IMG/VR virus record: IMGVR_UViG_3300037313_000284
Location: 32,001-96,000 of that record
DNA from: a virus
Strand: one strand, 5' to 3'
Length of the DNA stretch: 64,000 nt
Under the pieces are notes generated by a model that saw nothing but the letters and a program-made list of their open reading frames with translations, did not search any database and had not been told where the DNA came from. Positions within the stretch are counted from its first letter, which is position 1; each line of letters opens with the position of its first letter. Below are positions 6,814-62,410 of this stretch, piece by piece. A program made the translations under genes and the position numbers.

Positions 6814-9081
6814 CTAATCGATTTCGTTGACTTCGATACTAGCAATTCCGCCCGTGGACGTAACCGTCGTGCGAACCAGAATACGACGCATAGTACGAAC
6901 CGGATCAAGGATCACGTCAACGATGCGATTACCCTGTTCGATAATACCTGCCGGGTTATTATCGCCGTTAGAAACGATCTCGTACTCGGCAAGATCGCTC
7001 GGCTTATACGGCAGGAGGAACTTATCGATTGCCTGCGTTAAGGCAAACACTTCCACATCGGTGTTACCTTCGAAGACTTTCGTCTTAGAAAGCTGACGAA
7101 TCTTACCTTCGAGGAAACCAACGAGCCTAGTAATCGAGATAAACGAGAAGCCGCTGTCTTTGAACTGCGCCGTGGTGTCACCCCAAACAACAAAGGACAC
7201 GCCTTCGCGTTTAATGATGTTCATCTTCAGGCGAGCGAACAGATGCCCCTCTTGAGTCTCGTCATACTCGTAACGAACGTCAGTGGTATCGATTTGGCCG
7301 CGAGTTAATCCAGCCGGAGCCTTACCAACGCCGCGCGATTGATCGTTTTTACCGTAGACAACAGCAACGTGAGCCGAAGGCGGAACCCAAAGGTCCATAC
7401 CGGTGTACGGGTCTTGTTGCTTAACGTCAGGGAAGTAAATAGCGCCGAATTCACTATCCACCGCTAACTGTTGCAGGCGATAGTTAACAAGCGCTGCGTA
7501 CTTCTGATGCTCCGGAGGAACGTCGAGAATGGCTTCAGTGCCGTCATAACGCGTCTTAGCAACTTCGACCATAGCTTGTTGAATGCTAACGGCCGTATAG
7601 CCGGTATTAACAAGCACGTTGCAGGGATACTTCTGCGTGTTCTCAAACACCTTCCAGGCTTCAGCGAATTGCGCAGCCGAAGGAAGCGTGCCGTCCGAAC
7701 CTGCCGACAACCAAGTGATGCCCGTAGAAATCGCGCCATTGGCAGGATTAAACGGGATAACAACCGAACCGTCATCCGGAGCGTTAGGAATAACGCGGAT
7801 GATGCTCGAAGCGTTGGCACCTTTATTAACCACGTAGTCGATCTTTTGCTGCACGCCAAAAGCGTCGGCGACTTGCGCGAGATTAACGCGGTGACGTTCA
7901 GCGGCAACCGTGGGGTTATCCGTCGTATAGACTTCCAGATCGAAAGCGCCCGACGGACTAACACCCTTCACTTGTTGCGTGAAGGTAACCGCAGGCATCG
8001 AACCGGTAGAAGCAACGGAGAACACCGCGTCGGTCGAGGAACCACGCAGCATCGTAATAACGATTTCACGGTCGTTAGATTCGCCTAACGGACGCTTAGT
8101 AACCACAGCGGTATCAATGTCAACGTGTGCGGTCAGGGCCGCAGCAAGTGCCACTAGGAACGCGTCGCTCGGGGTGATGTTAGACACCGCGCTACACGCG
8201 ACGCCGTTAACAGTAACCGTCGTAGACGAAACGCTACCGACTGCACCAGCAAGCGTCATACGCACGACTTCTTTCGTGCCGACGTCTGCGTTAGTAAGCT
8301 TGTAGCCAATGCCCTTCGAATGCGCACCGGGGTTTTCAGCTTGCACGTAAAACAGCGGGGTTTGCTGCGAAGCGGCAGGCTGCGAAGCACCTCCAGTAAC
8401 CGTAACTCCACTAATTGCAATCTGTTGACCGGAGGGGCCGTAGATGCCAATCGTGCGAGCGTTCGTGCTACTAACTGCGTCCGTATCCATGACGGTGGCT
8501 TTACCGTCGCTACCCAACGAAGCAAGGCCAGCTTCAATAGCAGTAGCTAACGCGGCTAGCGTGGCGTCGTTATTGGTCGCGAAGTTAACCGGACCAACCG
8601 CCACAACTTGGCTATCAGCAATGATATTCAAGTTGATCACGTTGCTGGTAACCAGAGGACCATCGAACGTTAAGGCAATATAGCTAGGGCCGGTCGGAGT
8701 AATGCCGGTCGAAGGATCACTTTCCGCAGGGAAAGCCGAACCCGTCGAAGGGTACTTGTCAGCCGTGACCGTGTTATTAGCAGCGTCCGAGAGAATCGCC
8801 GCACCGCCGTATTTGGCGTTATTAACAACACGATTGAAGATTACCGGGAAACCAGCCTTCAGGATCGTGCGCGCGCCGTAGTGAGCGTAGCTAACCTTAG
8901 GGTTAGGACGACCGAACATGGCGTCAAGTTGTGCCGGACTCGTCAGCATGACGGGCTTGGTAGGACCCTTAAGCGAATAACCGGTAATGGCCGCAACCAT
9001 TCCACCGGTAGCCGAGATAAACGAAGATTGATCCCGACGTTGGCTATAAGCGCCCGCAGCCTCAGGAAAAAGAATAGTCAT
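6814..9081 (-). CDS. Contractile tail sheath protein
   Basis: GYSLKGP...FGRP; AILDVP...AIYFPDV...WVPPSAHVA...APAGLTRG...MNII...VVWGDTT...ISITRL...VFEGN sheath motifs. Confidence 0.95.
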   Translation of the reverse strand: MTILFPEAAGAYSQRRDQSSFISATGGMVAAITGYSLKGPTKPVMLTSPAQLDAMFGRPNPKVSYAHYGARTILKAGFPVIFNRVVNNAKYGGAAILSDAANNTVTADKYPSTGSAFPAESDPSTGITPTGPSYIALTFDGPLVTSNVINLNIIADSQVVAVGPVNFATNNDATLAALATAIEAGLASLGSDGKATVMDTDAVSSTNARTIGIYGPSGQQIAISGVTVTGGASQPAASQQTPLFYVQAENPGAHSKGIGYKLTNADVGTKEVVRMTLAGAVGSVSSTTVTVNGVACSAVSNITPSDAFLVALAAALTAHVDIDTAVVTKRPLGESNDREIVITMLRGSSTDAVFSVASTGSMPAVTFTQQVKGVSPSGAFDLEVYTTDNPTVAAERHRVNLAQVADAFGVQQKIDYVVNKGANASSIIRVIPNAPDDGSVVIPFNPANGAISTGITWLSAGSDGTLPSAAQFAEAWKVFENTQKYPCNVLVNTGYTAVSIQQAMVEVAKTRYDGTEAILDVPPEHQKYAALVNYRLQQLAVDSEFGAIYFPDVKQQDPYTGMDLWVPPSAHVAVVYGKNDQSRGVGKAPAGLTRGQIDTTDVRYEYDETQEGHLFARLKMNIIKREGVSFVVWGDTTAQFKDSGFSFISITRLVGFLEGKIRQLSKTKVFEGNTDVEVFALTQAIDKFLLPYKPSDLAEYEIVSNGDNNPAGIIEQGNRIVDVILDPVRTMRRILVRTTVTSTGGIASIEVNEID

Positions 9082-10682: not shown

Positions 10683-11771
10683 TTACAGCTTGGCCGCGTA
10701 GGAAACGGCTCGGGCGTTGTGCATCACCATCGAGACAGTTTCTTCCATGTACCAGCCCTTACCGCTAACGCCTTGCGAGTTAGCAGCGTTCAGCGGCAGC
10801 GAAGTCACCGGACCACGGTCGGTATAACCACCGAGTTGATCCGGAGCGCCGAGCGCGAACACGTCGCCCTTCGACAGCACGCGCATCTTAGGATGGCGAT
10901 AAGCGTCAGTGATCAGGCCGAGGCCGAAGATCGAGCCAATGCGGCCCGTCTGAATGATTTCCAGCTTAGTAACCGGATCGAAGAAGTTATCCGGGAACTG
11001 ACCTTGGACCGTAATATCATTCAGGATATCGGTAGCCATCAGCAGGGTCGAAGCGGTAACGCCCCAAGCTTGCAGCGCGCCAACCAGATCGCCAAGATAC
11101 AGGTTGGAGAACGCACCCGACATATAGATCGTCGAGTTAGCAGCAGCCGAACCGGAAGCGGCGCGAGCCATCGCGTAGAACGTAGCATCTTCAGTCTTGA
11201 AGATTTGTTCCAGCGCGTCGAGATACGCGTTATCCAGCAGGTCGCCGGAACCTTGGTTCAGATCGTTAGTATAGACGTACGGCGACGCCTTAATCTGGAA
11301 CTCGTCGGTTTCGATGTACTTATCGCGAACGATGGACAGCGAGGTTTGCGTCGGACCCACGGCTTTAATAGCGCGAGCGTCTTTAACGCGAACTTCGAAG
11401 CGCGGGCGCGAGCCTTGCGCCACTTCACCGCGCAGCAGCAGATTGCGCATGAAACCTTCACGGTCAGCATGCTCAGTCAGCTTACCAGCGATAGTAGCGC
11501 CGATTTCACGCCACGCGACTTGATCGTCGTCAGCGTAAGCGGCGGCCAGCATTTCACGACGGCTTTGAGCGGTAGCAGCGGTCTCTTCCGAGTCGAGCAG
11601 CGCTTGTTCCGTAATAACTTGACCACTCGACATTTGGCCGAGCAGCGACGCAATCATGCGCAGGGCATCTTGCGGATTAGCAGCGTTCAGTTCATTTTGG
11701 TTGTTGAACATGCGCGAACCACGGAACAGTGCGTTCGGCGCAACAGTGGAACCAAGAAGACGGGGCTTCAT
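10683..11771 (-). CDS. Major capsid protein (HK97 fold) with probable N-terminal propeptide
   Basis: REGFMRNLL; EFQIKASP; EQIFKTED; GRIGSIFGLGLITD; GWYMEETVSMVMHNARAVS; follows scaffold and decoration genes. Confidence 0.9.
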   Translation of the reverse strand: MKPRLLGSTVAPNALFRGSRMFNNQNELNAANPQDALRMIASLLGQMSSGQVITEQALLDSEETAATAQSRREMLAAAYADDDQVAWREIGATIAGKLTEHADREGFMRNLLLRGEVAQGSRPRFEVRVKDARAIKAVGPTQTSLSIVRDKYIETDEFQIKASPYVYTNDLNQGSGDLLDNAYLDALEQIFKTEDATFYAMARAASGSAAANSTIYMSGAFSNLYLGDLVGALQAWGVTASTLLMATDILNDITVQGQFPDNFFDPVTKLEIIQTGRIGSIFGLGLITDAYRHPKMRVLSKGDVFALGAPDQLGGYTDRGPVTSLPLNAANSQGVSGKGWYMEETVSMVMHNARAVSYAAKL

Positions 11772-11819
11772 TGTATCACCTTATAAATGGGTCGGTTACT
11801 GATTGCGAAGTTAGCGCTA

Positions 11820-12539
11820 TTACAGCACCGAAATGTCGAGACCCAGGAACGGGATATCGACAGACGGAGCACTAATAACTCGACCCTTCACGGTCGCGCC
11901 GGTGCCGCCGATTTGGAAGACGCCGTTAGCGCCAACCTTAATGGAGGAAGCCGGAGTCCAGCCAGCCCAATCGGCAGACGGATCGTAGTTGGTCGTGAAG
12001 ACCGTACCTTCTTCGATCACGCCGGTAACGCCGATAAGCGTCGGCAGGGTAGCAAACGTGGTCGGCGAGTTATCACCACCAAGTTGATACAGGTCAGCGA
12101 CAGTCGGGGCGTAGGTATAGGTAACTTCGAGTTCCTTACCCAGGTCAGCGGTGTTCACTTCAATGATGTTATTAGTGACAACACGATATTGACCGGCGGT
12201 GGGAGCACCACCAGCAGCCGTAAGCGCAACGCCCGTAGCCGTATAGATCACGCGCGGGGTACCCACGACGTTACGGTTAAGGACAATGCCCCACTGGCCC
12301 GAAGTAACCAGCACGACCTTAGCGCGGTAAACCAGCGGCGCGAGGGTAGGCGCGGTACGCTCGTTAAGAGCAACGCCAGCGAATTCTTCAGTGTTAGCAG
12401 AACCAACACCCGGCTTCACGGTCGGAACACCGTTAACGCGCACCGCGATCAGGCCAACGCCTTCTTCGATGCTAGTAACGCCAGAAGCGACGTCACGGTT
12501 ACGGGAGACGCGGATGCCGCACAGCGACAGATTAAGCAT
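11820..12539 (-). CDS. Head decoration / minor capsid protein
   Basis: Between scaffold and MCP; beta-rich, FAGVAL motif, ends SAPSVDIPFLGL. Confidence 0.65.
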   Translation of the reverse strand: MLNLSLCGIRVSRNRDVASGVTSIEEGVGLIAVRVNGVPTVKPGVGSANTEEFAGVALNERTAPTLAPLVYRAKVVLVTSGQWGIVLNRNVVGTPRVIYTATGVALTAAGGAPTAGQYRVVTNNIIEVNTADLGKELEVTYTYAPTVADLYQLGGDNSPTTFATLPTLIGVTGVIEEGTVFTTNYDPSADWAGWTPASSIKVGANGVFQIGGTGATVKGRVISAPSVDIPFLGLDISVL

Positions 12540-12586
12540 TTGTGTGCTTCCTACAATTAATAGGGTTTGTGACTAGTTGCTAACGC

Positions 12587-14464
12587 TTAACGCGGAACGA
12601 AAGCGCGAGACTGACGACCGAGTCCAGCAGTTAGTGCAGCAACGTCAATGCGGGGCTTTGCCGGAGGAGCAATAGCCGCCGTCTCAGGAGTCGGCGTAGT
12701 CGCCGGTTCAGCAGGAGCAGCAACCACCGGAACCGCGTTAATAAATTCCGCGTTACCGATAAGTTCAGCTTGCGCCGTACGCACTTCGTCGCTCGCATCC
12801 GCCAATTCCGAAGCTTTCTTGAACATGCGTTCAAGCAACGTCGGCATCGAAAGGATCATGCTAGCTTCAACGATAGCCGCCGGTTGACGGACGCCGTTGG
12901 TTTCCAGCACTTGAGCGAGTTCAGCAGCGACCGGGTTAGTAAAGTCCTTACCGAACATACCCTTCGCGATACCAAGCGCCGCCAGTTCAAGGCATTGCTT
13001 AAAGGTATCAGTGAACGAAGCACGTTCAGCAGCGATTTCGCTAGCCGCAGCCGTTTCTTGAGTCGCAACGCGTTCCGCAATAACCGTCGCGACTTTAGTC
13101 GAATGGCGCAGGATAGAGCCACCGAGTTGAGCCAGAGCAGTTTCACGGTTAGCACCGCTAATAGCAGCACGATACGTGTTACGAATTTCGGAGGGCTTAC
13201 CCCAAAGCGTTTGCACGCCAGCAGAAGCACTTTCCTTACGAAGAACCGCTACCGGTGCGTTATCTTGAATAACGTAGTAGGCAGTTTCTCCGACCGGAAC
13301 GATTTCCGCATCAGGGCTAAGTTCCGCCGGGGTAGTAGCCACATACTCAATAACCGTATCGTCGCTAGCGACGACCGTATTATCAGCAGCAGGCACACCA
13401 GCATCTGCCGCAGGCGCGTCTTCAACCGTAACGGTTTCAGCAGCGACCGGGGCTTCTTCCGCAACTTCAGCCGCAGGGGCCTCAGCAGCGGGAGTTTCAA
13501 TAACTTCAGCAGCCGGAGCGTCAGCCGGGGTATCCACGGCATCAGCGACGACAACATCAGTCACATTAGTATCAACGGGGGCGTCAGCCGCAGGAGCGTC
13601 AACCGCCGTATTGTCGGTTTGCGTTTCAGCAGGCGTAGACATATCGCTCGCCCCTTCTTTGTTTTCATCGACCGATTCAGCAGCAGGCGCGTCAGTAATA
13701 ACTTCAGCCGCTTCTTCCTCGGAGGAATCATCCTCATCGTCACCATCTTCTTCCGAATCTTCGTCCTCTTCGGACTCATCTTCGTCTTCTGACGGATCGC
13801 TCTCATCCATATCCATGACTTCTAACGAGTCACCGTCTTCACTATCTTCATCAGCAGCGAAGTCGTCATCTGAAGCCGTAATAACCGCTTCATCCGAAGT
13901 GTGTTCGTCAATAGTCCGCATAGCTAGAGCGACACTAGCGAGAAGCGCACGACGCGCTTGCGTATTGCTCATGTCGTTTTCCTCAAGCGTGTTGGGATCA
14001 ACTGTGTTAAGCTCCCCAAAGTCGAAGAAATTTGCTAACTCCGACCTAGTTTGCTCATTGGTTTTTGTATCGATAGCGATATCCATCGACACGCCCGAGT
14101 TAACATAGCTAACCGGGACGCCACACATAACACAAGCACCGGGATGCTCATCCGTGATGACGTTTGCCGTCACAGTGTCGCAATACAAATCACTAGAGCA
14201 ATTTGCACACTCACCAATCTTAATAAGTGAATCCACTTTTGGTGGAGCAACATCGTTAGGCTCAAGGTTAGAACCATCAACAGGCGAAAGCGCGCCAATG
14301 GAGCCGACCTTGTTTGACACTACAGGGGCGGTTAGCCCAGCGTCATAGGTAGCAGTAATCACACTGGAAGGTTGATGCCCTGCCGGAACAGCGACAATAA
14401 CTGAGGCCGTTTCTTTTAAAGCTAGCAAACTTCCTAGCGGTTTCTGCGTATTGCGAAGGCTCAC
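12587..14464 (-). CDS. Prohead scaffold/core protein with N-terminal Cys cluster
   Basis: CANC..C..CVMC; long acidic tract; PAA(D/E) repeats; helical C-terminus; AGGAGAGG RBS; upstream of decoration/MCP. Confidence 0.7.
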   Translation of the reverse strand: MSLRNTQKPLGSLLALKETASVIVAVPAGHQPSSVITATYDAGLTAPVVSNKVGSIGALSPVDGSNLEPNDVAPPKVDSLIKIGECANCSSDLYCDTVTANVITDEHPGACVMCGVPVSYVNSGVSMDIAIDTKTNEQTRSELANFFDFGELNTVDPNTLEENDMSNTQARRALLASVALAMRTIDEHTSDEAVITASDDDFAADEDSEDGDSLEVMDMDESDPSEDEDESEEDEDSEEDGDDEDDSSEEEAAEVITDAPAAESVDENKEGASDMSTPAETQTDNTAVDAPAADAPVDTNVTDVVVADAVDTPADAPAAEVIETPAAEAPAAEVAEEAPVAAETVTVEDAPAADAGVPAADNTVVASDDTVIEYVATTPAELSPDAEIVPVGETAYYVIQDNAPVAVLRKESASAGVQTLWGKPSEIRNTYRAAISGANRETALAQLGGSILRHSTKVATVIAERVATQETAAASEIAAERASFTDTFKQCLELAALGIAKGMFGKDFTNPVAAELAQVLETNGVRQPAAIVEASMILSMPTLLERMFKKASELADASDEVRTAQAELIGNAEFINAVPVVAAPAEPATTPTPETAAIAPPAKPRIDVAALTAGLGRQSRAFVPR

Positions 14465-14588: not shown

Positions 14589-15416
14589 CTATTTAAGTCC
14601 GTAAAGCATGGTGCGTAAGTTATAACCGCCAACACCGCCTTCCAAACGTAGAGAGATTCTTTGGTTAGCCGCGAAGGGATATTCCACTATAAGGTTGTCA
14701 CGAGTGATGATTAACACACCAGACGCGCCGACAAACATTGGAAACTTCGCGATAAGCACTTCAGTGTCAGCAGCCGCACCTTGTGTAGCAACACCGACAT
14801 GCATAACTAGCGCGTCGGCAACTGGAGCCGCCGTGCTATCGGTCGGTAAAATCATTAATGCGTTATAAGTGGTGGATAGGTTATGTACCACAGTCCACGA
14901 ACCACTGCCGCTAGCAACCGCCGGAATATCCGGAAGGTCTGCGCGAGTGTTAGAAGCCGCGCCAGTTAGCGTCGTCATCGTAGTGAAGCCAGGCGGGTCT
15001 TGTGAGTTAGCAACATACCCGTCTAGGAAAGCTTCAATACCAGTTGAGGTAGCGCCGGTGGTCTGCGCCCTCATAACAATCGTCGAGTTAGCAGGAACCG
15101 CTAACGGAACGTCAATAGTTTGATAGCCGCCTAAGTTAAGGAAACCATATAGGTTTAGACAGTGCCACGTTGTTCCGTTATTAAACGAAATATCGAACAA
15201 CGTACGGCTGCTACTAGTGCCAAATAAGTTGACGAAAAGTTTGAACCCGCACCAAGCTTGCGTGTTCGAACCCATCGAGACAGGAGTAACAGTCTTTGAG
15301 CTCGAACCGCCCGTCGCGATCTGTGTTCCACGGGCGTTAGCTAATTGGCCTAAGATTTCACGTGAACGTTGCGGGTTCCTGGGGGCGCTGCCCCCAGGGG
15401 TTATTAAATAACTCAT
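14589..15416 (-). CDS. Virion fibre/appendage protein (beta-sandwich domains)
   Basis: Thr/Gly/Ala-rich, beta-strand pattern, in fibre cluster. Confidence 0.5.
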   Translation of the reverse strand: MSYLITPGGSAPRNPQRSREILGQLANARGTQIATGGSSSKTVTPVSMGSNTQAWCGFKLFVNLFGTSSSRTLFDISFNNGTTWHCLNLYGFLNLGGYQTIDVPLAVPANSTIVMRAQTTGATSTGIEAFLDGYVANSQDPPGFTTMTTLTGAASNTRADLPDIPAVASGSGSWTVVHNLSTTYNALMILPTDSTAAPVADALVMHVGVATQGAAADTEVLIAKFPMFVGASGVLIITRDNLIVEYPFAANQRISLRLEGGVGGYNLRTMLYGLK

Positions 15417-15925
15417 TACGCCACCCGATAAGTTAGGCGTCCATGGATTTGACCCGCCAACGAAGCCTTCAACACGAAGCTTTTACTAAGTTGCGACGTG
15501 TAATAGGCCGGTGAGTCTTCAAACGCCAGAACGATACCGCCACCAGCAGCTAACGGAATCGTTTCTAAGACGGCAGGTGAACCTTCCGCCGTTGTAGCAT
15601 CCATCACATCAATAGTAATCACGCTAGCGCTCGTATTATAGAGACGCAGACGTGGAACATGAATGATCTTACCCGCTTGTGCAGGCACAATGGCTTGTTC
15701 AGCGGTGCTGTTGAAGTTAATACGGCTACCGAAATAAGTGAAAGCTGTTACGCCGCCGCCTCCCGTACCGTTTTCGGTTATCGTGATATGCTGATCTTGA
15801 ATCCACTGTGCCAGCTTACCCACATCGTAGGCGTCAGGCATCGTGATAGCTTCGCCAGGAGCCAACCTAAGATCGGGCGGAATGCGCAGCGCGTAGGCGC
15901 GTAAGTTAGTAATGGTATAAGACAT
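15416..15925 (-). CDS. Small virion protein with shared N-terminal module
   Basis: MSYTITN...LRLAPGEAITMP...; GTGGGG linker then beta domain. Confidence 0.55.
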   Translation of the reverse strand: MSYTITNLRAYALRIPPDLRLAPGEAITMPDAYDVGKLAQWIQDQHITITENGTGGGGVTAFTYFGSRINFNSTAEQAIVPAQAGKIIHVPRLRLYNTSASVITIDVMDATTAEGSPAVLETIPLAAGGGIVLAFEDSPAYYTSQLSKSFVLKASLAGQIHGRLTYRVA

Positions 15926-15938
15926 TTGTCCGCCTTCC

Positions 15939-17111
15939 TTACGTCGTGGTCTTTAGATTAATACCGGTAAGTTGGCCGGTATTGGCGATTTTACGTCGCC
16001 ACCGCAGTGGAATGTCTTTGGTCGTACCGGCAGGAGCACCGACCGTAACGATTTGCAGCGTTGCGGCTTGAGCCTTAGTTAATACGACTGACTGACCTTT
16101 AGTCACATTGACGTAAGGAGTACCAACGTCAAAGGCGATATCTACAGGGTTGTCATGTCCACCGTTATTAGTAAACGATAGCGTATGCTTGTCCTGTTCC
16201 GTAGGCGTGAAGGTGACCACCACGCCATTAGAGTTTTCCACCATAGTAACGGTGGCAGAAGGTGAGAACGAACCCGCAAACGTACTAGCCACAGTCACGG
16301 TAAACGGTGAGAACACAATACCGTTAGGGCTTAGCAGTATGTCAATCGGCGAACCGACTGGATGCGGCCCTGGAGTTAATACTTGCGCTGTTAGCGTAAG
16401 TTTCGGAGGCCACTGGTTAGTGTCAGCGTCAGTGACGTTAGCTCCACCGGAGTTCTTAGCCCACGCTTGACCGGAACCCCGATTGGGGTTGCCGGTGTTC
16501 CAAGTCGTAGCCTTTCCTAATAGGAAAACAGGTGGCGTGACACTGAATGGACGTTCGGCGTTGAGTCCAATATATTCTGCCCGGAATTTATCTAAGTTCG
16601 TAGGATCACTAAGATTAGTCCATTGGCCCGGCCACAGGATAAGCGTACCAAATACTAACGATTGCGGGTTTGGCGTGTTAGCAGAACCCATGAACTGTTG
16701 TGTGGTAGTAACACTCGCCCAATTCGCCGACGCGTTTTGGGTATAGGTACCTTGCACAAATCCAACCGCAGGCACGTAGTCGATATACAACTGCATGCCT
16801 TGCGCCGAAGGTAACGAGGAGTCAACCACCAGAAGATAAGTGTGGTTGACTCCGTTCATTAATCCGGTAGGTGTGTCCATCCGGCCGCAGAAGGTATTGA
16901 ACCTAATGCGGCCGGTGTTTAGCACTTGGATACTACAAATAGCAGAACCCGCCGAAGCTCCCATCAAGTTATAAGTGGCCGACGGAACCGATGGGATAGC
17001 TAAGTCTAATAAGTACACGGCTTTAGTGCTAGTCAGGTTTTGGATGCCGCCCGTAGTGGATTGCGTCCATAGCTGACTAGCGTTGGTTTGAATATGAGGA
17101 AACTTACTCAT
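15939..17111 (-). CDS. Fibre protein with lectin/LamG-like domain; paralogue of C-terminal part of 17108..20485
   Basis: WPGQWTNL..NLDKFRA..G...PF..PP vs WPGKWIDL..NIDLFRA..G...PF..AP; shared VV(V/L)xFTPT...H.(L/I)S.TN.GG..NP. Confidence 0.6.
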   Translation of the reverse strand: MSKFPHIQTNASQLWTQSTTGGIQNLTSTKAVYLLDLAIPSVPSATYNLMGASAGSAICSIQVLNTGRIRFNTFCGRMDTPTGLMNGVNHTYLLVVDSSLPSAQGMQLYIDYVPAVGFVQGTYTQNASANWASVTTTQQFMGSANTPNPQSLVFGTLILWPGQWTNLSDPTNLDKFRAEYIGLNAERPFSVTPPVFLLGKATTWNTGNPNRGSGQAWAKNSGGANVTDADTNQWPPKLTLTAQVLTPGPHPVGSPIDILLSPNGIVFSPFTVTVASTFAGSFSPSATVTMVENSNGVVVTFTPTEQDKHTLSFTNNGGHDNPVDIAFDVGTPYVNVTKGQSVVLTKAQAATLQIVTVGAPAGTTKDIPLRWRRKIANTGQLTGINLKTTT

Positions 17112-22925: not shown

Positions 22926-23705
22926 TTAACTGTCGCCTAAGTGAAGTAGATGCTCAGGCGACACGTGTGCCGCTGCCCAAGCCGGGGTGGGGTGGACGCA
23001 ACTAAGCTCGAACCCGCGAATGAAATCGCAAATGTAGTGAGCTAAGACCGGACCGCGGTCCGGAGTATTGAAAATGCGCATCGTCCTATTATCAAGGCTA
23101 ATGTGCTCACAACCGTTTTGTGCTTTGGTTGGGCGATGCCCGCACACTGCGCATTCGTAACTACCGACCGAAGCACCCATCGAATAGTGAGAGTATTCAC
23201 CGGTTAGGATGTTATTAGCTAAAACCGGATCACGAGTACGGTCACAGCCATAAAGCGCAACCGCCTTCCACACTTTCTGATTAGTACCAGCTAGCGGAAG
23301 CATGCGGGTATCGAACACCGCGCCCTTAGCGTTAGTCGGGTCATCATTAACGTGATTGAAATGCGTAGGCCTACGCTTCCACGTTTCATAACCCAAGCAC
23401 GCTAGGTCCAGATCGAACCGACCCATGCTAGCTAGTGAGAACGCCACGCCATTACGATTAGGTAGCGCCGTAGGAAACATAATAACCGGAGTGATTACGT
23501 AATCTCTAATGTCCCTAGAGATATTGTATTCAGCGGCGGCGGCTTCCAACCAACCGGTTCCCAATTCTCGACCTAGGTTAGTATCTAGTCCCGCCGTTTC
23601 AAAAGACATTCTGGCACGCGACTCATTGCCCTTAAGAATGTCGTGCATTTCAAATGCTTGTAACCCAGGTTCCTCACAGAACCCTAGTTCGATAGACCTT
23701 TCCAC
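22926..23705 (-). CDS. Prohead maturation protease (HK97/assemblin-like)
   Basis: PNRNGVAF; HFNH; YSMG; CxxC..CEH insert; GFELSCVHPTPA; start reassigned to GTG 23705 (AGGAG RBS, TAATTT motif at 23749-23754 upstream). Confidence 0.8.
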   Translation of the reverse strand: MERSIELGFCEEPGLQAFEMHDILKGNESRARMSFETAGLDTNLGRELGTGWLEAAAAEYNISRDIRDYVITPVIMFPTALPNRNGVAFSLASMGRFDLDLACLGYETWKRRPTHFNHVNDDPTNAKGAVFDTRMLPLAGTNQKVWKAVALYGCDRTRDPVLANNILTGEYSHYSMGASVGSYECAVCGHRPTKAQNGCEHISLDNRTMRIFNTPDRGPVLAHYICDFIRGFELSCVHPTPAWAAAHVSPEHLLHLGDS

Positions 23706-23778
23706 AGTCGCAACTCCTAACCTATGGGCGACGTTTGGTTCGCTTATTAAATTAGCGTTAGGCGGCATTTTAGACAAG

Positions 23779-23820: not shown

Positions 23821-25215
23821 CTATAACTTAAAGATCATTGAGTGCTTAGGATCATGATCTTGAGCTATCGCAGCGGCCGCTGCTATCACTTTAGGCGGTG
23901 CACTATCACGAATCATTTTAATATCGCAACGATGCCGTTCAATCTCACCGTATTCTTTGTGGTGAACAATGCAGCGCATATCTTGACCTGAGCGATAACC
24001 GCTACTAAAATGCCAAGCATCCGAGCCTGCTAGCGTGCGGAATATTTCGCACGTCACTCCATCCTTTTCTTCTACCTTGTCATGGTGCAAATGCCCTTGA
24101 TAGAAGTAGAGGAACTCAGACGAAGAGATTAACGAACGGCAATCGGTGTACATGATGCCCGGCAGATTAGCGGGCTTCGTCGTGTCACCGTGCGTAGCGC
24201 CAATTAGTACCTTACCGAATTGGAAGTACCAGAAGGCCGCAGGTGAAAGCGAAATGTGCACGCGTGGATTGTTTTTATAATACATATCCAGCGACAAAGC
24301 TAGCGCGTATGACGAACGCTTGTCGTGGTTGCCTCGCACGTTTCTAACAATAACCGTCTCATGCTTTTCAAGTGCACGTTCGATGCACCAGATCATAGCC
24401 CGCAGGCCGACTTGCATGATTTCGGTCCAGCGACCAGACACATCTAACGAATTATTAGAACGCTCAGTGCGGTTCTCTTCGTTGTCAGTGTGAAAGAAAT
24501 CTCCTAGGTTAAGGATGACACCGATCTTAGCGTTAGGTGCACTAGCAACCAACCTATCGATGGCAGTAATAGTTACTAATTCGGCGGTGTGTAGACTGAA
24601 GTCCTCACCGGCTTCCCTCGCCCATGCGTGCATGCCGAAGTGTGGGTCTCCCATAGGGTAGACGCACATAAGGTCTTCGTCGAAATTCTTTGGCGGTTTA
24701 ATAAGCGGCGACTTACTCTTGGCGCGCTTTGTCAGCCAATGCACCCACTCTTCAATCGCCTTGTCGGCTTCTTCTCTGTCAAGCTCGGATTTAACCCATT
24801 GTTGGGTAACGGAGCCTGTCGAATCGTATTGCGTAGTAACTCCCTTAACGCGATACGGTCGAGGAACACGCTTAGTCATATCGAAGTCGGGAGCATGCCC
24901 GGTAAGGGCGGCTTTCTTACTCAGCGCTTCGATAGCGTCATTCAATTCCGGCAGGGTAATACCTAGGGCGTTACACGCCGCGATTTTGGCAGATTGCAGT
25001 AACCCGAACACCGCGCGTTCGGTGATACCTAAGGCAGCGCCTGCCGCTAAGCGTGTGCCGTATTTATTAACAGCGTCAATAGCCTCACATTGACGTTCAG
25101 TAGCCCAATTCTTCAAAGTAGGGTTAATTGGCAGCCTTACCAATGTATCCTGAATTCTAAAATCTTCGTCCAAACTCTTCATCGTGCCCAACCACTCGCT
25201 TACTAAATGATGCAC
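23821..25215 (-). CDS. Calcineurin-like metallophosphoesterase with N-terminal HTH
   Basis: GDPHFG, GDFFH, GNHD, THGD, GHLHH motifs; AGAALGITERAV HTH-like. Confidence 0.85.
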   Translation of the reverse strand: MHHLVSEWLGTMKSLDEDFRIQDTLVRLPINPTLKNWATERQCEAIDAVNKYGTRLAAGAALGITERAVFGLLQSAKIAACNALGITLPELNDAIEALSKKAALTGHAPDFDMTKRVPRPYRVKGVTTQYDSTGSVTQQWVKSELDREEADKAIEEWVHWLTKRAKSKSPLIKPPKNFDEDLMCVYPMGDPHFGMHAWAREAGEDFSLHTAELVTITAIDRLVASAPNAKIGVILNLGDFFHTDNEENRTERSNNSLDVSGRWTEIMQVGLRAMIWCIERALEKHETVIVRNVRGNHDKRSSYALALSLDMYYKNNPRVHISLSPAAFWYFQFGKVLIGATHGDTTKPANLPGIMYTDCRSLISSSEFLYFYQGHLHHDKVEEKDGVTCEIFRTLAGSDAWHFSSGYRSGQDMRCIVHHKEYGEIERHRCDIKMIRDSAPPKVIAAAAAIAQDHDPKHSMIFKL

Positions 25216-25257: not shown

Positions 25258-27552
25258 CTACTTAGGCCCGCCGTGTTTATCAGCCCAATCACGCATCATC
25301 TTTGCAGTTCCGATTGCGTCTTCGGGATCATTAGTACCATAGGAAGTAGCCTCACGCCGTTCAGCGCTAGGTAGTTCCTTTTTACTAAACGTCACGATGT
25401 ATTCACCATCGACGACGTTACAGACCAAGCCAAGTTTACGAATTTCTTCCTTCACTTGTGCTTGAGTTAGTGCAGTCTCAACGGCTGCACGTTCGATGCT
25501 ATTATGATGATCGATCAATGCTTCAATCGTGTCAGTTTGGCACCGTCCGGTAGTGCCCCTAGTAACTCCAGGCACCGCACGGTCGAACCAATAACTGTAT
25601 CCGCCGTTGTCTTTAACACAGTCAATTGTCACGCTATTGCGTAAGAGGTACCTAGTACCGTGGATACCAGCAGCTAAGGCTTCTCGCGCAGACTTCTTGA
25701 AATCCTTGAGACTGAAAGGTTGTGGCGCAATTTTCACCACCGCCGTTTTCATATCTTTATAGTGATTAGCAGTCTCGCGAACAGTACCGTCAACCGATTG
25801 CTTAGCTTTCGGTTCTGACTTACCGTCGTAGCCGACCTTAACCGCCATCTTCATTAACTCATCGGAGAAGCGACGCGGCTTCTTACCGTCAAGCATCAAT
25901 GCGTCAGGATGCGCCATCGAGCCCAGCATAGAAGCGATCTTCGCTAACGCTGCGCCGATAGTAACCATGTAGTCAGCTTTGAACTTACCAAGCTTACGTT
26001 GCAGGCCGCACATATCGGCGGTGACTTCAACTTGATAACCGGTACCTTCGTTTTCGTAGGTGTAGGCGATCTTGTACTCAACAGCACCCATGCAGAAGCA
26101 ATAGGTTTTATTAGTAACCTTACCTGCCTTCACACCGACCAACTTACGAAGCTCTTCGCAGTAGTCTTGCAGGGTCTTCTTATCGCCGTCCTTACCGAGT
26201 TCGTCAGCAATGGAATCAAGCAAGCGAAGCACGCGGGTCATATCGTTGTGATTAACCTTGGCGAATTGCTTCAGCATCTTGTTGTAAACCGTCAAGAGTT
26301 TGGCTGATTCCCAACCGCTCTTGCGCTTGACCTTAACGCCCTTGTTGATCGTACCGTAGTGCAACTCCACTACGGGTTTCTTGCGACTTAAATTAATCAC
26401 GATGTGCGCGCCACCTAGGACGCACGTCTCGTTCTCTTTCTTTTTGCCGCCGAGCGCCGCCATCAGGCGTCCCGCGTTGAAAGCCTTAGGCTCTTTCGCG
26501 GTTTCCACCATGTGGTTAATAATACCGTCAACGTGCTCTTTCATGAGCGCGAGTTCGTCTTCGCTCAAGTCCTCTTCTTCGAGCGTGCACTCGCTAGGAC
26601 CGTCGTGAAGCATACCGTCGTCAGCTAGCTCGCTGCCAGACTTGAACTTCCCGATCTTGGTTCCGGTTCGTTTAGCATCTTTTATTAATGCCTTAACAAT
26701 ATCGTCGTAACCCTTAGCGTCGTTCTTCGCGCCCCAAATATCGTCGGCGTGTGTACCGTCCTGATATATTAACATGAGGCCGGGTTCGTCTTTAGTAGGC
26801 ATCTGAATCATGTACGGTAACAACAAATCGTTATTACCATATAGCATGATATAGTCGTAGTCTTCTTTCGAAGCTCTAGAGTGGAACTTGACGGTAATCT
26901 TCAGCTTAGCTTTAGCTAAGGCTGCCAAGATACCTTTTAACTTAGCCCGTGAGGCCGCCGTCTCAACCGAGGCTTCCTCTTCGGAGTCCTCATCGTCTTC
27001 GTCGGTGTTATTATCGAGTTCGTCTAGCTCGTCTTCGTGCTCAACGTCCTCTTCCTCGTCGTCTTCGTCTTTAGCCTTGCCTTTCTTTTTCTTCTTTTTA
27101 GGCTTAGCCTCTTCCTCTTCTTCCTCGTCGTCGGACTCTTCTTCGTCCGAGTTATCATCATCTTCCGCTTCCGCAGAGTCGTCATCTTCATCGGACTCTT
27201 CGTCCTCAGAATCTTCCTCTTCGTCGCCATCCTCTTCGGTGTCTTCTTCACCGTCGAACATATCGGATTCGATGATCTTAATTAGTGCGTCCGACTTGGC
27301 GTCGAGATTGTCTTCATTGAGAGCTTCAGCGAGAGCCTCAAACATACCAATGAATTCTTCTTCGTCATTGGAGTCGAAATTAGTCTCTTCACCACTCACC
27401 ACTAACGTAACGCGGCCACCGGGACGCACGATGATAGTAATAAGGCTCGAACTGTCGATGACGATGTACGCGTAGTTACCTTGTCTGTCCTTGCCGCCGG
27501 TAATGATACCTTGTTTCTCGGCGAGGGCTAAAATTTCAAGGATCACTTCCAT
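25258..27552 (-). CDS. Multi-domain acidic/basic internal head protein (candidate polyprotein)
   Basis: Five compact segments separated by VETAA, VETAK, RETAN, VETAL; long D/E tract with poly-K; start at ATG 27552 after AAGGA. Confidence 0.6.
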   Translation of the reverse strand: MEVILEILALAEKQGIITGGKDRQGNYAYIVIDSSSLITIIVRPGGRVTLVVSGEETNFDSNDEEEFIGMFEALAEALNEDNLDAKSDALIKIIESDMFDGEEDTEEDGDEEEDSEDEESDEDDDSAEAEDDDNSDEEESDDEEEEEEAKPKKKKKKGKAKDEDDEEEDVEHEDELDELDNNTDEDDEDSEEEASVETAASRAKLKGILAALAKAKLKITVKFHSRASKEDYDYIMLYGNNDLLLPYMIQMPTKDEPGLMLIYQDGTHADDIWGAKNDAKGYDDIVKALIKDAKRTGTKIGKFKSGSELADDGMLHDGPSECTLEEEDLSEDELALMKEHVDGIINHMVETAKEPKAFNAGRLMAALGGKKKENETCVLGGAHIVINLSRKKPVVELHYGTINKGVKVKRKSGWESAKLLTVYNKMLKQFAKVNHNDMTRVLRLLDSIADELGKDGDKKTLQDYCEELRKLVGVKAGKVTNKTYCFCMGAVEYKIAYTYENEGTGYQVEVTADMCGLQRKLGKFKADYMVTIGAALAKIASMLGSMAHPDALMLDGKKPRRFSDELMKMAVKVGYDGKSEPKAKQSVDGTVRETANHYKDMKTAVVKIAPQPFSLKDFKKSAREALAAGIHGTRYLLRNSVTIDCVKDNGGYSYWFDRAVPGVTRGTTGRCQTDTIEALIDHHNSIERAAVETALTQAQVKEEIRKLGLVCNVVDGEYIVTFSKKELPSAERREATSYGTNDPEDAIGTAKMMRDWADKHGGPK

Positions 27553-27585
27553 AGCAAGACTATCCTTCAAGAACTCAATTAGAAA

Positions 27586-28578
27586 TTAACTCAACTTCGG
27601 TTTGGCTTGTTGGCCTAAAGCAGGCAATCCATGTCTACTGGAACTCATTACAAAATCACGGTAGCGATCCGGCATATATTCATCGACGGCGCGCTTACGA
27701 GTAGCTCGCAATTGCATGGCCGTATCAAAATAATAAGCGATCTTCTCACGAAGTTGCGGGTCATCGGGATGAAGAAATCCCGACAGCGGAGAATTTAATA
27801 ATCTCCGCAGTATCCGCTTGGCTTCATGTGGTTCTTTGCGTAAGATCAGCCGATAAAATGGTGTAAACGAACCACGGGCTTCGAAATGATATCGCGTCAG
27901 GTTGTATACGCGCTTACTTAACAGTGCCGCGTACAATCCCATTTCTGTGGCTGTCGTGACGTACACCACATCTGCATTATTTAATAATTCGATACCGCTG
28001 CAATCGCGATCAAATACGCGGTTATAACCAAACGTCTGGCCAAGTTTGCGCGTAAGTTCCGGCGCAGTAATCGGATGCAGTTTAATAAGCACGTCTTCGT
28101 CCTCATGCATCAGACGCATGAGGTTTTCGGCGCTTACTGCTTCATCGAAAACATTGTGCCCTGGTAGAAAGATTATTTTCTTAGGCACAAAATCGATTGG
28201 ACGGTCATGGACCAAACATAGAGGTTTAGTTAATACATACTTGTCACGGAGGGGTAGGTGATCCACAGGGTGGAATTCCCATCGACTTACGTCGTCATCC
28301 AGGGCTTTTTCCACCATCAACGCAGTCATTTCGTTAGACTGCGGCTGCAACCACATATTTCCTAATAATTCAGTGTAGGTGAATTCGTGAAAATAATCGG
28401 GTTGCAATCGAGACACATCATAACTACAGGGCAACGGTGTCAGTTCACGAATAATTTTCTCGATTGTGCCCAGACGTTTTAGGTGCGGCGCCCGCTTTTC
28501 CCAGCTTTCCTTACCGATTTTGTCGATTTGGAAAACTTCATCCGTCATGAGTTGATCGTGTATGAGTGTAGTTACCAT
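27586..28578 (-). CDS. KpsS/KpsC-like (capsule biosynthesis family) glycosyltransferase-like protein
   Basis: LIKLHP...ELLNNADVVYVTTATEMGLYAALLSKRV resembles the KxHP...LL..AD.V....S..G..A.L.GK.V GT-B motif. Confidence 0.55.
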   Translation of the reverse strand: MVTTLIHDQLMTDEVFQIDKIGKESWEKRAPHLKRLGTIEKIIRELTPLPCSYDVSRLQPDYFHEFTYTELLGNMWLQPQSNEMTALMVEKALDDDVSRWEFHPVDHLPLRDKYVLTKPLCLVHDRPIDFVPKKIIFLPGHNVFDEAVSAENLMRLMHEDEDVLIKLHPITAPELTRKLGQTFGYNRVFDRDCSGIELLNNADVVYVTTATEMGLYAALLSKRVYNLTRYHFEARGSFTPFYRLILRKEPHEAKRILRRLLNSPLSGFLHPDDPQLREKIAYYFDTAMQLRATRKRAVDEYMPDRYRDFVMSSSRHGLPALGQQAKPKLS

Positions 28579-33938: not shown

Positions 33939-35750
33939 TTAATCTTCAATGCCAGCCTTGATCTTGGCATTGTGAGTTTCCGCAACACGCGCTAGCGCCT
34001 CGGCGATAGTCTTGTGTTGCTTGTCACGTAGTAACCTCTTACCGAGCGCGGTAGAAGGACGCATACGTTTAGTCCCGACTTCCTGATACGGCTCCATGGC
34101 TTCAGCCGTTTCGTCGTCGTAAGAACGACCGAGAATACCAACAGGTTGTGTCAAGTCACTAAACATAGCGAACTCATCACCACCCGGCGCGCCGTCACCT
34201 TCGACTAAAGGCTTCGGCATAATATCTCGGATATCTTCGATGTATTTAGCTAGGCGCTTACGGTCATCCAAGTCTTGCTTGTGGTTTTCCATAACCGCTT
34301 CGAAATCCATACCACCAGCCGCGAACAACGCGCGGATAGGTGCAGGGACATTACGCTCTTCTAGTAAGTTGAGCATTTCGATATAGGCTTGGTCACCCTC
34401 AGGCATTAGCGACTGACGCCAAGTGATCTTAGGCGTGTCGTACAGACTGACGTTAGTAATCGTGTTGGCAGCGTTGGCCGCCACTTCTAGCGCAGTGAGT
34501 TGCCCGCGTTCTTTGCCCGCGCCTTTGATCATATAGTCATTGGCTTTAGCGATCTGCGGGAAAATCTTGCGATACATCAACTGTTCGGTAACTTGGTTCC
34601 GCTCAGTCTTAATCGTTTGCAGGAACGTGGAAATCGCCACTTCCGCGTTATTAAACGTAGCGTCGCCCGATAGGAACGACTCAGACACGCCCAGCGAACG
34701 AAGCTTAAAAGCAACAGTCTGTTCGAAGCTATCCGTGATCCGCCAGAAATCAGTCGGGTTACGAACCTCGTTAGGGCTAATACCTTCACGCGTAACGACG
34801 ATAGCGCCTAGCGGGTCAGCGTCTGCGTTATTAAATAGCTCTGCGATCTGCTGCATTTCCTCAGGCGAGGCTAACCATTGGTCGCCCATACCTGCGGTGA
34901 TGTGCAGAATACCGCGTTGCCTACGGTGCGCCGCTTCAATCGTGCCACGAGTTAGCGCACGTTCGATCAAGAAGATCGGCAGGATGCGGTGCAGGATACT
35001 ATTAAACCGAGGATCGGGACCGGGGCGGTCAATCCACACCACGCTATCCATCGGAACCGGAATAACCTTCGCGCCCTTCTGTTGCAAGAATTGCGGAATG
35101 TTCTTCTTAATGTCGGCTAGACGATCATCGTTGCTGTTAATAATGTCCGAAAGGAAATCATTAAGCTGGATATCGACCACCGGGTCCATACCGAACACCG
35201 GTGAATAGATGATCTTAGAAACGGCCATACGCGAGTACGGCAACATGCTGTCGTAGGTCTTCTTAGCGCCGTTCCAGTCAAGCATGCCTAGGAACGCACC
35301 TTGCACGTCGCGTTCGATAGCCAATCGCGGCATGACCGTACGCAGCCGCATATTGTCAACGGCCTCTTCATACTTCTGAATGCGAGACTTTTCTACGCCG
35401 TGAACTGCGAAGTCGCCGTACGGGATATTAGCGCGTAGATCGATAGCGGGACCACAAATACTATCTTCACGATACAACGCGTTATAGTATTTATAAATCT
35501 CGGGAGGAGCGTTAGACGACGAGCCGCCTTTGTTAGAACTAGACGAACCGCCAATGTAATTCAGCGATAAGTCTTCGTCAGTAATCCCGCCCATTGCCGC
35601 TGACGACGTGCTAGTGCTACTAGCAGTCTCACGAAACCGCGCGATCTCATTACCGGAACGGAATTGCCCGGCACTATTAGCCATTGAAGTTTCGCGACCT
35701 GCGACGACGTTACGGCCTTGAAGCTGGTATTTACTTAGTCCGCTGAACAT
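33939..35750 (-). CDS. Portal protein
   Basis: YNALYREDSICGPAID...P; SILHRIL; LRSLGVSESFLSGDATFNNAEVA; size about 600 aa. Confidence 0.8.
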   Translation of the reverse strand: MFSGLSKYQLQGRNVVAGRETSMANSAGQFRSGNEIARFRETASSTSTSSAAMGGITDEDLSLNYIGGSSSSNKGGSSSNAPPEIYKYYNALYREDSICGPAIDLRANIPYGDFAVHGVEKSRIQKYEEAVDNMRLRTVMPRLAIERDVQGAFLGMLDWNGAKKTYDSMLPYSRMAVSKIIYSPVFGMDPVVDIQLNDFLSDIINSNDDRLADIKKNIPQFLQQKGAKVIPVPMDSVVWIDRPGPDPRFNSILHRILPIFLIERALTRGTIEAAHRRQRGILHITAGMGDQWLASPEEMQQIAELFNNADADPLGAIVVTREGISPNEVRNPTDFWRITDSFEQTVAFKLRSLGVSESFLSGDATFNNAEVAISTFLQTIKTERNQVTEQLMYRKIFPQIAKANDYMIKGAGKERGQLTALEVAANAANTITNVSLYDTPKITWRQSLMPEGDQAYIEMLNLLEERNVPAPIRALFAAGGMDFEAVMENHKQDLDDRKRLAKYIEDIRDIMPKPLVEGDGAPGGDEFAMFSDLTQPVGILGRSYDDETAEAMEPYQEVGTKRMRPSTALGKRLLRDKQHKTIAEALARVAETHNAKIKAGIED

Positions 35751-51182: not shown

Positions 51183-51405
51183 GAGGGTCTAACCGGCAAT
51201 TGCTTGGGAGAGAACGCGTACTGTGCGGGGGTTAGTACGCGGGGCGACTGTCCTAGCGATTGCCACCCTCTATGGCAACAAGAGTTAGTATGGGCTAGTC
51301 CACTTAAGCAGTGAACACACTAGCAAGGCTGTAACTAGCGTTGCGTGTCATCTAACTCGCCATTACCAACTAATAAATTAGTGGTTTAATGACACCTAAC
51401 TCTTG
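51183..51405 (-). ncRNA. Candidate structured small RNA(s)
   Basis: Nested stems gagggt/accctc, ggcaat/attgcc, cgcgtact/agtacgcg; caagagttag/ctaactcttg, ctagt/actag, gtgtcat/atgacac; no listed ORF. Confidence 0.55.
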
Positions 51406-52293: not shown

Positions 52294-52426
52294 AGCTCTT
52301 CTCCTGATAGGTGGTACTCAATTAGTATAAACCTTCGAAGCGTACTAAGTGCTACCACCTATGCGGAGGGTCAGTGATAACTTGCTTCGAATGACGCTAA
52401 TAAATTAGTAATATCGCGTAAGTTAT

Positions 52427-62354: not shown

Positions 62355-62410
62355 AGAACGCGGCTCCTAATGTTCACTTTAATAAATTAGCGCTATACCG
62401 ATTAAACAAA

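Follow-up and report, generated by a model that had tools for sequence, protein, structure and literature searches.

Locus and layout of the polyprotein gene

The stretch of DNA analyzed here, called the window below (64,000 nucleotides; positions 32,001 to 96,000 of the IMG/VR virus record IMGVR_UViG_3300037313_000284), is part of an uncultured large phage. Its minus strand carries, at 25258..27552, a gene for a protein of 764 amino acids (stop codon at 25258-25260), in which four E-T-A tripeptides set off a row of small modules, or beads, behind a conserved N-terminal part. This polyprotein gene, its relatives and the possible fate of its product are the subject of the present work; all its features given below lie on the minus strand and residues are numbered in the 764-amino-acid form.

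The protein begins with an N-domain (residues 1-95; 27268..27552), which is the most conserved module, with 45-81% identity to the window copy across the family, followed by an acidic Asp/Glu tract (residues 96-197; 26962..27267) with a net charge of -55, predicted to be disordered. The tract contains E-E-A motifs at residues 147-149 and 192-194 and a Lys-rich island of Lys, Pro and Gly residues (~150-161; 27070-27105), which is preceded by E-E-A and kept in five of the ten family members (the window copy, P0003, P0008, P0009 and P0030). The first junction, site 1 (S-V-E-T-A, E197-T198-A199; 26956..26964), reads EVA or ELA in relatives and is followed by bead 1 (residues 198-331; 26561..26961), a type A insert in the first variable slot that is unique to this phage. 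Next comes a helix of ~25 residues ending in M-[V/I]-E, present in all ten family members whether slot 1 is filled or empty; in the window most of it spans residues 332-350 (26503..26560; helices at 331-351 in the structural model) and it ends in M-V-E at site 2 (M-V-E-T-A, E350-T351-A352; 26497..26505), whose E350 is invariant in the aligned family. The remainder consists of bead 2 (residues 351-593; 25774..26502), which is basic (isoelectric point, pI, 9.5; net charge +16), site 3 (V-R-E-T-A, E593-T594-A595; 25768..25776) within a disordered linker, bead 3 (residues 596-692; 25477..25767; pI ~9), a type A insert in the second slot and again unique to this phage, site 4 (A-V-E-T-A, E692-T693-A694; 25471..25479), and finally bead 4 (residues 693-764; 25261..25476), a member of the stand-alone small phage protein family phrog_7884. 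An earlier note, made from the sequence alone, had described the same arrangement: an N-domain of ~100 residues, an Asp/Glu tract with a Lys island and four ETA sites near 26960, 26500, 25772 and 25475.

The open reading frame (ORF) has an alternative start at TTG 27570, but ATG 27552 is the likelier one, because a GAAGGA Shine-Dalgarno sequence lies 10 nt 5' of it and a TAATTT motif stands at the usual -30 to -40 spacing. The homologue in the closest relative is annotated six residues longer. The TAATTT motif, which the earlier note had already assigned to this gene, was located at 27583..27588 on the minus strand, 36 nt 5' of ATG 27552, overlapping the stop codon of the upstream gene. In the whole 140.8-kb contig it occurred within 60 nt 5' of 13 of the 179 ORFs, against ~1.5 expected from its genome-wide density, and most of these copies were positioned at -30 to -40 from the start codon; this enrichment and spacing make it a plausible candidate promoter element of the phage. 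Over the whole contig TAATTT, whose extended form is CTAATTTATTAG, was ~9-fold enriched within 60 nt 5' of ORFs; copies of the motif in the window include those at 27583-27588, 51370-51381, 52397-52408 and 62379-62390.

Family members and variable slots

Nine relatives of the polyprotein were found in 5.8 billion protein clusters, which brings the family to ten members, all metagenomic; one of these, P0030, was the sole addition from a profile search run at the 'longer' length setting. Profile scans of IMG/VR and of JGI metagenome contigs with the N-domain found no relatives, and a word-indexed search with the N-domain alone recovered the closest relative only. The backbone of the family runs in the order N-domain, acidic tract, ~25-residue helix, bead 2 and bead 4. 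Bead 2 is long in seven members and short in three, while bead 4 is present in nine of the ten; the member without it, P0006, sits on a 2.8-kb contig and may be truncated.

Three positions along this backbone differ in their occupancy. Slot 1, after the acidic tract, contains type A in the window only and type B in P0003, P0004, P0008 and P0030 (~45% identical to each other; 105 residues in the closest relative), and is empty in four members. Slot 2, between beads 2 and 4, contains type A in the window, type B in P0003 and type C in P0009, and is empty in the rest, while P0005 has an extra 72-residue module after bead 4 (slot 3). The type C insert of P0009 matches positions 2-98 of the 98-position phrog_9437 profile (E 2e-19), a protein for which 32 named phages, with Rhizobium, Sinorhizobium, Rhodobacter and Pseudomonas among their hosts, have a free-standing gene. 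The type B insert of slot 2 (L001, 8973-9188) has four Cys residues in a CxxC...HC arrangement with a very weak Pfam zinc-ribbon hint (E 0.43), and may be a small zinc-binding module.

The junctions of the family read ETA, EVA, ELA, EIA, EEA, EKA, ESA or EMA, with two exceptions: EQD at site 2 in P0008 and VKTA at site 4 in P0003. At the latter site the other members mostly have VELA, VEIA or VEVA, with RETA in P0007 and EAA in P0005. As far as the aligned sequences go, they demonstrate a fixed order of modules with variable content, the junctions doubling as points of exchange. Of the cassette of captured effectors envisaged in the earlier note, the variable set of modules is borne out by slots that are either empty or filled with unrelated inserts, one of which is the complete phrog_9437 protein. 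As a measure of variable cargo its count of five beads is too high: next to the fixed-order backbone there are only two or three variable slots.

Junctions as module borders

The closest relative, P0003 (JGI contig L001), was the only close one available for comparing break points and the rates of nonsynonymous and synonymous substitution (dN and dS). Along 14 kb, its contig and the window are collinear (~72% nucleotide identity) save for two gaps, one at window positions 26962-26561 (residues 198-331; 134 residues in the window against 105 in L001) and the other at 25767-25477 (residues 596-692; 97 against 72). In three of four cases the gap edges coincide with junctions, namely sites 1, 3 and 4 (E197, A595 and T693), and the DNA homology ends inside the E197 codon at site 1 and at A595 at site 3. 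The remaining edge precedes site 2 by ~20 residues and lies where the family-conserved helix begins and the DNA homology resumes. The replaced pieces gave a dN above 1.1, in contrast to 0.07-0.16 in the flanks, where dN/dS was 0.08-0.15 (N-domain 0.13, helix 0.12, bead 2 0.10, bead 4 0.15); by this measure purifying selection acts on the flanking modules (N-domain, acidic tract, helix, bead 2 and bead 4). No similarity between the replaced pieces of the window and L001 was found by BLASTP or hhalign for either gap. For bead 1, in which MAFFT aligned a few short motifs between types A and B, a relation as divergent homologues was considered and rejected, and the two types are treated as a replacement because BLASTP and hhalign found nothing.

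The AlphaFold2 model of the full chain had a low overall confidence, with a predicted local distance difference test score (pLDDT) of 56 and a predicted template modeling score (pTM) of 0.33, while by part the pLDDT reached ~78 in the N-domain, up to 84 in parts of bead 2 and ~75 in bead 4. It fell below 50 over residues 99-203 and 579-695 (619-628 being just above 50), which covers sites 1, 3 and 4. Bead 2 folded alone gave a pLDDT of 79.8 and a pTM of 0.76, its last 14 residues, before site 3, being disordered.

That the ETA sites mark borders of autonomous modules, as the earlier note had proposed, is well supported by sequence comparison and structure prediction: the break points against L001, the breaks in model confidence and the stand-alone homologues that start right after ETA (see below) all fall there. 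Of the two findings that would have spoken against such modules, an integrated fold is at odds with the rise in pTM from 0.33 for the whole chain to 0.76 for bead 2 alone, and a fixed co-occurrence of segments with unconserved motifs is at odds with the varying slot occupancy and with junctions conserved as E-x-A.

Identity of the individual modules

The N-domain was modeled as an alpha/beta sandwich. It bore a borderline structural resemblance to frataxin/CyaY (Z 7.5, root-mean-square deviation 2.8 A over 85 residues, 9% identity), the score lying in the range given by models without a true match, and the N-domain is proposed here to be a capsid-targeting or assembly domain. Bead 2 gave a confident, two-lobed alpha/beta model. 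Searches of the full and bead 2 models against PDB and BFVD with Foldseek and VIA-align returned no match above background; for the full model Foldseek had hinted at a PUR-alpha- or XRCC4-like fold, with probabilities up to 0.66 and E values of 0.02-0.15, a lead that was dropped since the better bead 2 model did not reproduce it.

An exhaustive phmmer search with residues 198-764 against 1.84 billion representative proteins produced 21 matches, namely seven polyprotein relatives and 14 stand-alone proteins, and no homologue of beads 1 and 3 of the window. All 14 stand-alone proteins match bead 4 only, end to end, with lengths of 66-132 residues (mostly 66-96), and their initiator Met aligns with L695, the first residue past ETA. 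Together with a match to phrog_7884 (E 5.3e-6, profile positions 26-61 of 66), this agrees with the reading of the last segment in the earlier note as a complete small phage protein. Judged from the bead 4 and phrog_9437 matches, at least two beads of the family are whole small phage proteins that are also encoded as separate genes.

The bead 4 family was further linked by HHalign to gp012 of phage phiCbK (97.6%) and to Babayka_00210 (98.1%). The former and its orthologues are surrounded by small hypothetical genes within the 10-kb terminal repeat, and BABAYKA_00210, from a Brevundimonas phage of the Autographiviridae, lies just 5' of a putative kinase gene. Such positions are typical of early host-directed genes, as in the genome organization of T5 and T7, and provide no more than circumstantial support for an early-acting bead 4 family. 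A conserved partner gene beside the stand-alone homologues was looked for and rejected, the downstream genes of ~80 residues in L005 and L006 being unrelated. The metagenomic protein P0016 (290 residues) contains the bead 4-like domain twice, at a distance of ~150 residues and each time with a Gly/Tyr/Asp-rich stretch behind it, so the small domain is also reused outside the polyprotein family.

The other searches of this protein remained negative within their scope. The whole gene had no match by megablast and tblastn among 50,697 named phage records, and Pfam gave, for the whole protein and every module, nothing but a sub-threshold low-complexity match. No defence-related match was obtained by PADLOC for any module, PHROGs recognized among the modules the bead 4 family phrog_7884 only, a PDB sequence search with the bead 4 profile found nothing, the ESM Atlas had nothing usable for beads 4 and 2, and no paralogues of any module were found in the phage's own 140-kb contig.

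The E-T-A motif in the polyprotein and in head proteins

The tripeptide is strongly overrepresented in the polyprotein: it has four copies, where shuffling predicts 0.41 (P = 6.5e-4). Each copy has the form [V/R]ETA, for which 0.036 copies were expected and which none of 20000 shuffles reproduced. Different synonymous codons encode the four sites, so that it is the peptide and not a repeated DNA sequence that is conserved; on the same ground, a recombination signal in the DNA of the junctions was rejected. Among the ORFs of the contig, ETA occurred 28 times (15.4 expected) and VETA seven times (1.1 expected).

Four of these proteins belong, or probably belong, to the head and carry the motif near their N-terminus: the major capsid protein (MCP; 10683-11771, minus strand; phrog_2522) as SEETAA at residues 61-66 (ETA at 63), the portal (33939-35750, minus strand; phrog_16240) as RETAS at residues 40-44 (ETA at 41), the prohead (head maturation) protease (22926-23777, minus strand; phrog_18299), presumed to be the processing enzyme, as FETAG at residues 59-63 (ETA at 60), and an acidic scaffold-like protein of 625 residues (12587-14464, minus strand) as KETAS at residues 17-21 (ETA at 18). 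These near-N-terminal copies are conserved in relatives of 47-68% identity; in L003 the MCP copy is shifted eight residues earlier.

Two prohead proteases of known specificity cut behind Glu: gp21 of T4 after Glu in L/I-x-E, and gp175 of phiKZ after Glu in S/A-x-E (PMC9026906). Because both enzymes cut C-terminal to Glu, and because Glu is the invariant junction residue here, the scissile bond is more likely to be E|T than the one following ETA. By this analogy the likeliest cut is x-x-E|T-A, with Ala favoured two residues past the cut. A PDB sequence search with the protease found no solved relative.

A possible precursor of capsid cargo

The reading favoured here, at a rough probability of 0.55 and by analogy with the internal proteins of T4, is that the polyprotein would be a precursor of capsid cargo cut by the prohead protease. 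The anatomy agrees with it: the N-domain, acidic tract and helix would make up a conserved targeting and propeptide part, candidate protease sites separate the modules, the basic beads could remain with the DNA, and the slot contents turn over between related phages. On this reading, the N-domain, the acidic disordered tract and the helix would bring the precursor into the assembling prohead, where the protease encoded nearby would cut at the E-x-A junctions, most likely just after Glu as gp21 and gp175 do. Cleavage would release an acidic propeptide and four small proteins of ~17, 27, 11 and 8 kDa, of which the basic beads 2 and 3 would remain with the DNA; injection of the genome would carry the set into the host. 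The modular and mosaic anatomy is well supported; everything beyond it is inference.

Several observations weigh against a cargo precursor. Cleavage and packaging are inferred from the motif and synteny only, and the protease specificity assumed for this clade is taken from the T4 and phiKZ enzymes. The mapped cleavages of SPN3US, except for self-cleavage of the protease, separate an N-terminal propeptide from one mature product, not from several (PMC10052503). E-x-A is also found within folded modules of the polyprotein, and the tripeptide alone is therefore insufficient to define a site; sites 1 and 4 were modeled as low-confidence helix instead of coil, and at site 4 of the closest relative, P0003, Glu is replaced by Lys. 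Furthermore, the searches gave no recognizable function for any bead, and with ten family members the slot census is thin.

Capsid-internal proteins act before phage gene expression, and the capsid is thus a privileged place for counter-defence; an anti-defence or host-takeover role of the beads, as suggested in the earlier note, is no more than a reasonable guess. A further-reaching possibility, judged less probable, is that the family serves as a plug-and-play delivery chassis with one targeting module, in which small, early-acting phage genes are captured in E-x-A slots so that their products are made beforehand, packaged and injected ahead of expression; beads 1-4 would then be new pre-delivered takeover or counter-defence proteins, and the junction motif could be used as an engineering handle to load foreign proteins into capsids.

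The explanation that competes best with a cargo precursor, although it appears unlikely, is that the protein is a component of the prohead core or scaffold only, like gp22, gp67 and gp68 of T4, whose fragments are expelled and whose beads have no function after assembly. The gene adjoins that of the protease, and in T4 it is the prohead core genes 67 and 68 that stand in this position before the protease. The long acidic tract likewise resembles scaffold and core proteins, there are multiple candidate cut sites, and the best conserved module is the N-domain and not a bead. However, after the protease this phage already encodes a distinct acidic, scaffold-like protein that has five ETA motifs, and bead 4 and the P0009 insert are autonomous, with free genes in early rather than head regions of unrelated phages that lack this system. 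Moreover, beads 2 and 4 are under purifying selection as folded units, and the replacement of whole beads by unrelated sequence fits poorly with any exacting structural role.

An uncleaved multidomain protein, in which E-x-A would be a favoured linker or helix-capping sequence and the mosaicism ordinary domain shuffling, is considered improbable. The looseness of E-x-A and its presence within modules, the helical models of sites 1 and 4 and the indirect nature of the case for cleavage are all compatible with it, but it leaves unexplained why the strict form [V/R]ETA occurs four times against 0.036 expected and why the motif closes the presumed propeptides of the MCP, the portal, the protease and the scaffold-like protein, and is conserved there. 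The invariant Glu, too, is what is known from Glu-specific prohead proteases (PMC9026906).

Least probable is a cytoplasmic accessory polyprotein that merely rides in the late operon and is freed in pieces within the infected cell by a phage or host protease: it would suit the stand-alone bead 4 relatives, which are ordinary expressed genes in early regions, and encapsidation is itself a deduction, but the late, structural context with a promoter-like motif common to the head genes, the conserved linkage to a prohead protease of a kind known to be active inside proheads (PMC9026906), and the consideration that an early-acting function made late is useful only when carried to the next cell all argue against it.

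Comparison with known systems

Viewed as a cargo precursor, the polyprotein would have its closest functional analogue in the internal-protein system of T4, with the ejection proteins of large phages also close. In T4, diverse cargo is united solely by a targeting sequence (PMC9026906, PMC3012670), and one of these proteins, IPI*, enters with the DNA and counters restriction (PMC3012670, PMC9026906). In IPI, IPII and IPIII, as well as Alt, an N-terminal targeting part incorporates the cargo and is removed after Glu by the prohead protease gp21; the cargo differs strongly from one related phage to the next, whereas the targeting part is conserved, as is the N-domain here. The two systems differ in their genetic layout: T4 has a separate gene for each cargo with a targeting peptide of ~10 residues ending in L/I-x-E, whereas in the polyprotein several cargoes would follow one folded domain of 95 residues and an acidic tract of 100 residues, with exchange at internal junctions. 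A short targeting sequence of the T4 type was not found, the first candidate sites being the two E-E-A motifs of the acidic tract and then E-T-A at 197-199, and there is no sequence similarity between the polyprotein and the T4 internal proteins.

The inner-body and ejection proteins of phiKZ, 201phi2-1 and SPN3US, which are substrates of gp175/gp245, are head proteins of large phages that would resemble the polyprotein in their long N-terminal propeptides with several protease motifs. Such substrates are cleaved after Glu in a three-residue motif, and many copies of them are packaged and ejected (PMC10052503, PMC9026906). In the polyprotein the acidic tract holds E-E-A twice and E-T-A once, and the same motif recurs between the four downstream modules; in contrast to SPN3US, with its single mature C-terminal product, it would here separate four folded or semi-folded modules. 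The polyprotein also differs from the phiKZ and SPN3US proteins in that no homology to a named phage protein was found, and the protease is only ~36% identical to the enzymes of Erwinia and Dickeya jumbo phages.

The polyvalent proteins (Iyer et al., 2017, PMC5512222) share with the polyprotein a multi-module build, a late or structural context and a mosaic, fast-changing architecture, and have been proposed to be packaged, delivered and sometimes released by proteolysis (PMC5512222). They possess, however, recognizable enzymatic or effector domains and often a zincin-like peptidase of their own, whereas the polyprotein would depend on the prohead protease acting in trans. Lacking all of the domains catalogued by those authors, it falls outside their definition of polyvalent proteins. 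The T4 core proteins gp22, gp67 and gp68 are likewise acidic; their genes neighbour that of the protease, and maturation cuts them into several pieces (PMC9026906). Most of these T4 fragments, however, leave the head, and they do not form autonomous domains; no homology to the polyprotein was found, and this phage has a scaffold-like gene besides.

In known cargo systems, such as the T4 internal proteins and the ejection proteins of phiKZ and SPN3US, one gene encodes one cargo. If the proposed reading is true, exchangeable slots delimited by protease sites would be a different genetic solution and account for the route by which orphan small proteins end up in the virion as cargo. They would also provide a simple rule for finding such cargo in metagenomes, namely to seek the phage's own cut motif between autonomous modules encoded beside the protease. 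Five uncharacterized modules are nominated by the present analysis, among which the bead 4 family spans both phiCbK-like phages of Caulobacter and T7-like phages.

Genome setting and neighbouring head genes

The polyprotein gene lies two genes from that of the protease, as the earlier note had stated, with a single intervening gene: an Mre11/SbcD-like 'DNA repair exonuclease' gene (23821-25215, minus strand; phrog_704, E 5e-98). The phrog_704 gene occupies this place in the window and in L001. In L002, L003, L007 and L009 it is missing from this position, and therefore looks like an insertion into the head module. In those four contigs the polyprotein gene is directly followed by a gene for 256-273 residues, whose homology to the protease is confirmed in L002 and L003 and which aligns with the protease in L007 and L009; in L008 the polyprotein gene is likewise followed by a gene in the protease position, cut by the contig end. 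The protease relatives mentioned above, at ~36% identity, belong to the jumbo phages Erwinia Y3 and Dickeya JA29.

The 625-residue acidic protein is probably the scaffolding protein. It consists of a Cys-rich N-terminal part, an Asp/Glu tract of ~60 residues, an Ala/Pro-rich middle and a helical C-terminal part, has five ETA motifs in total, and gave merely a weak 'ATPase' match in PHROGs. A homologue of its gene is located directly 3' of the protease gene in L003, where it is followed by a gene for ~240 residues and the MCP gene; a 560-residue gene has that place in L007, with matching gene sizes in the same order. In the window, the place between the scaffold-like and MCP genes is taken by a 239-residue ORF (11820-12539, minus strand), with a homologue in L003 and a 242-residue gene at the same position in L007, which may encode a minor head or decoration protein; calling the longest ORF wrongly picks the opposite strand here (11787-12560, plus strand). 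The tail sheath gene (6814-9081, minus strand) was recognized by its homology to a PF17482 sheath gene in L003. Finally, L009 carries 3' of its head module a gene for 732 residues (14640-16838) with Hint and LAGLIDADG matches (Hint_2 and LAGLIDADG being weak or faint), which suggests that it contains an intein.

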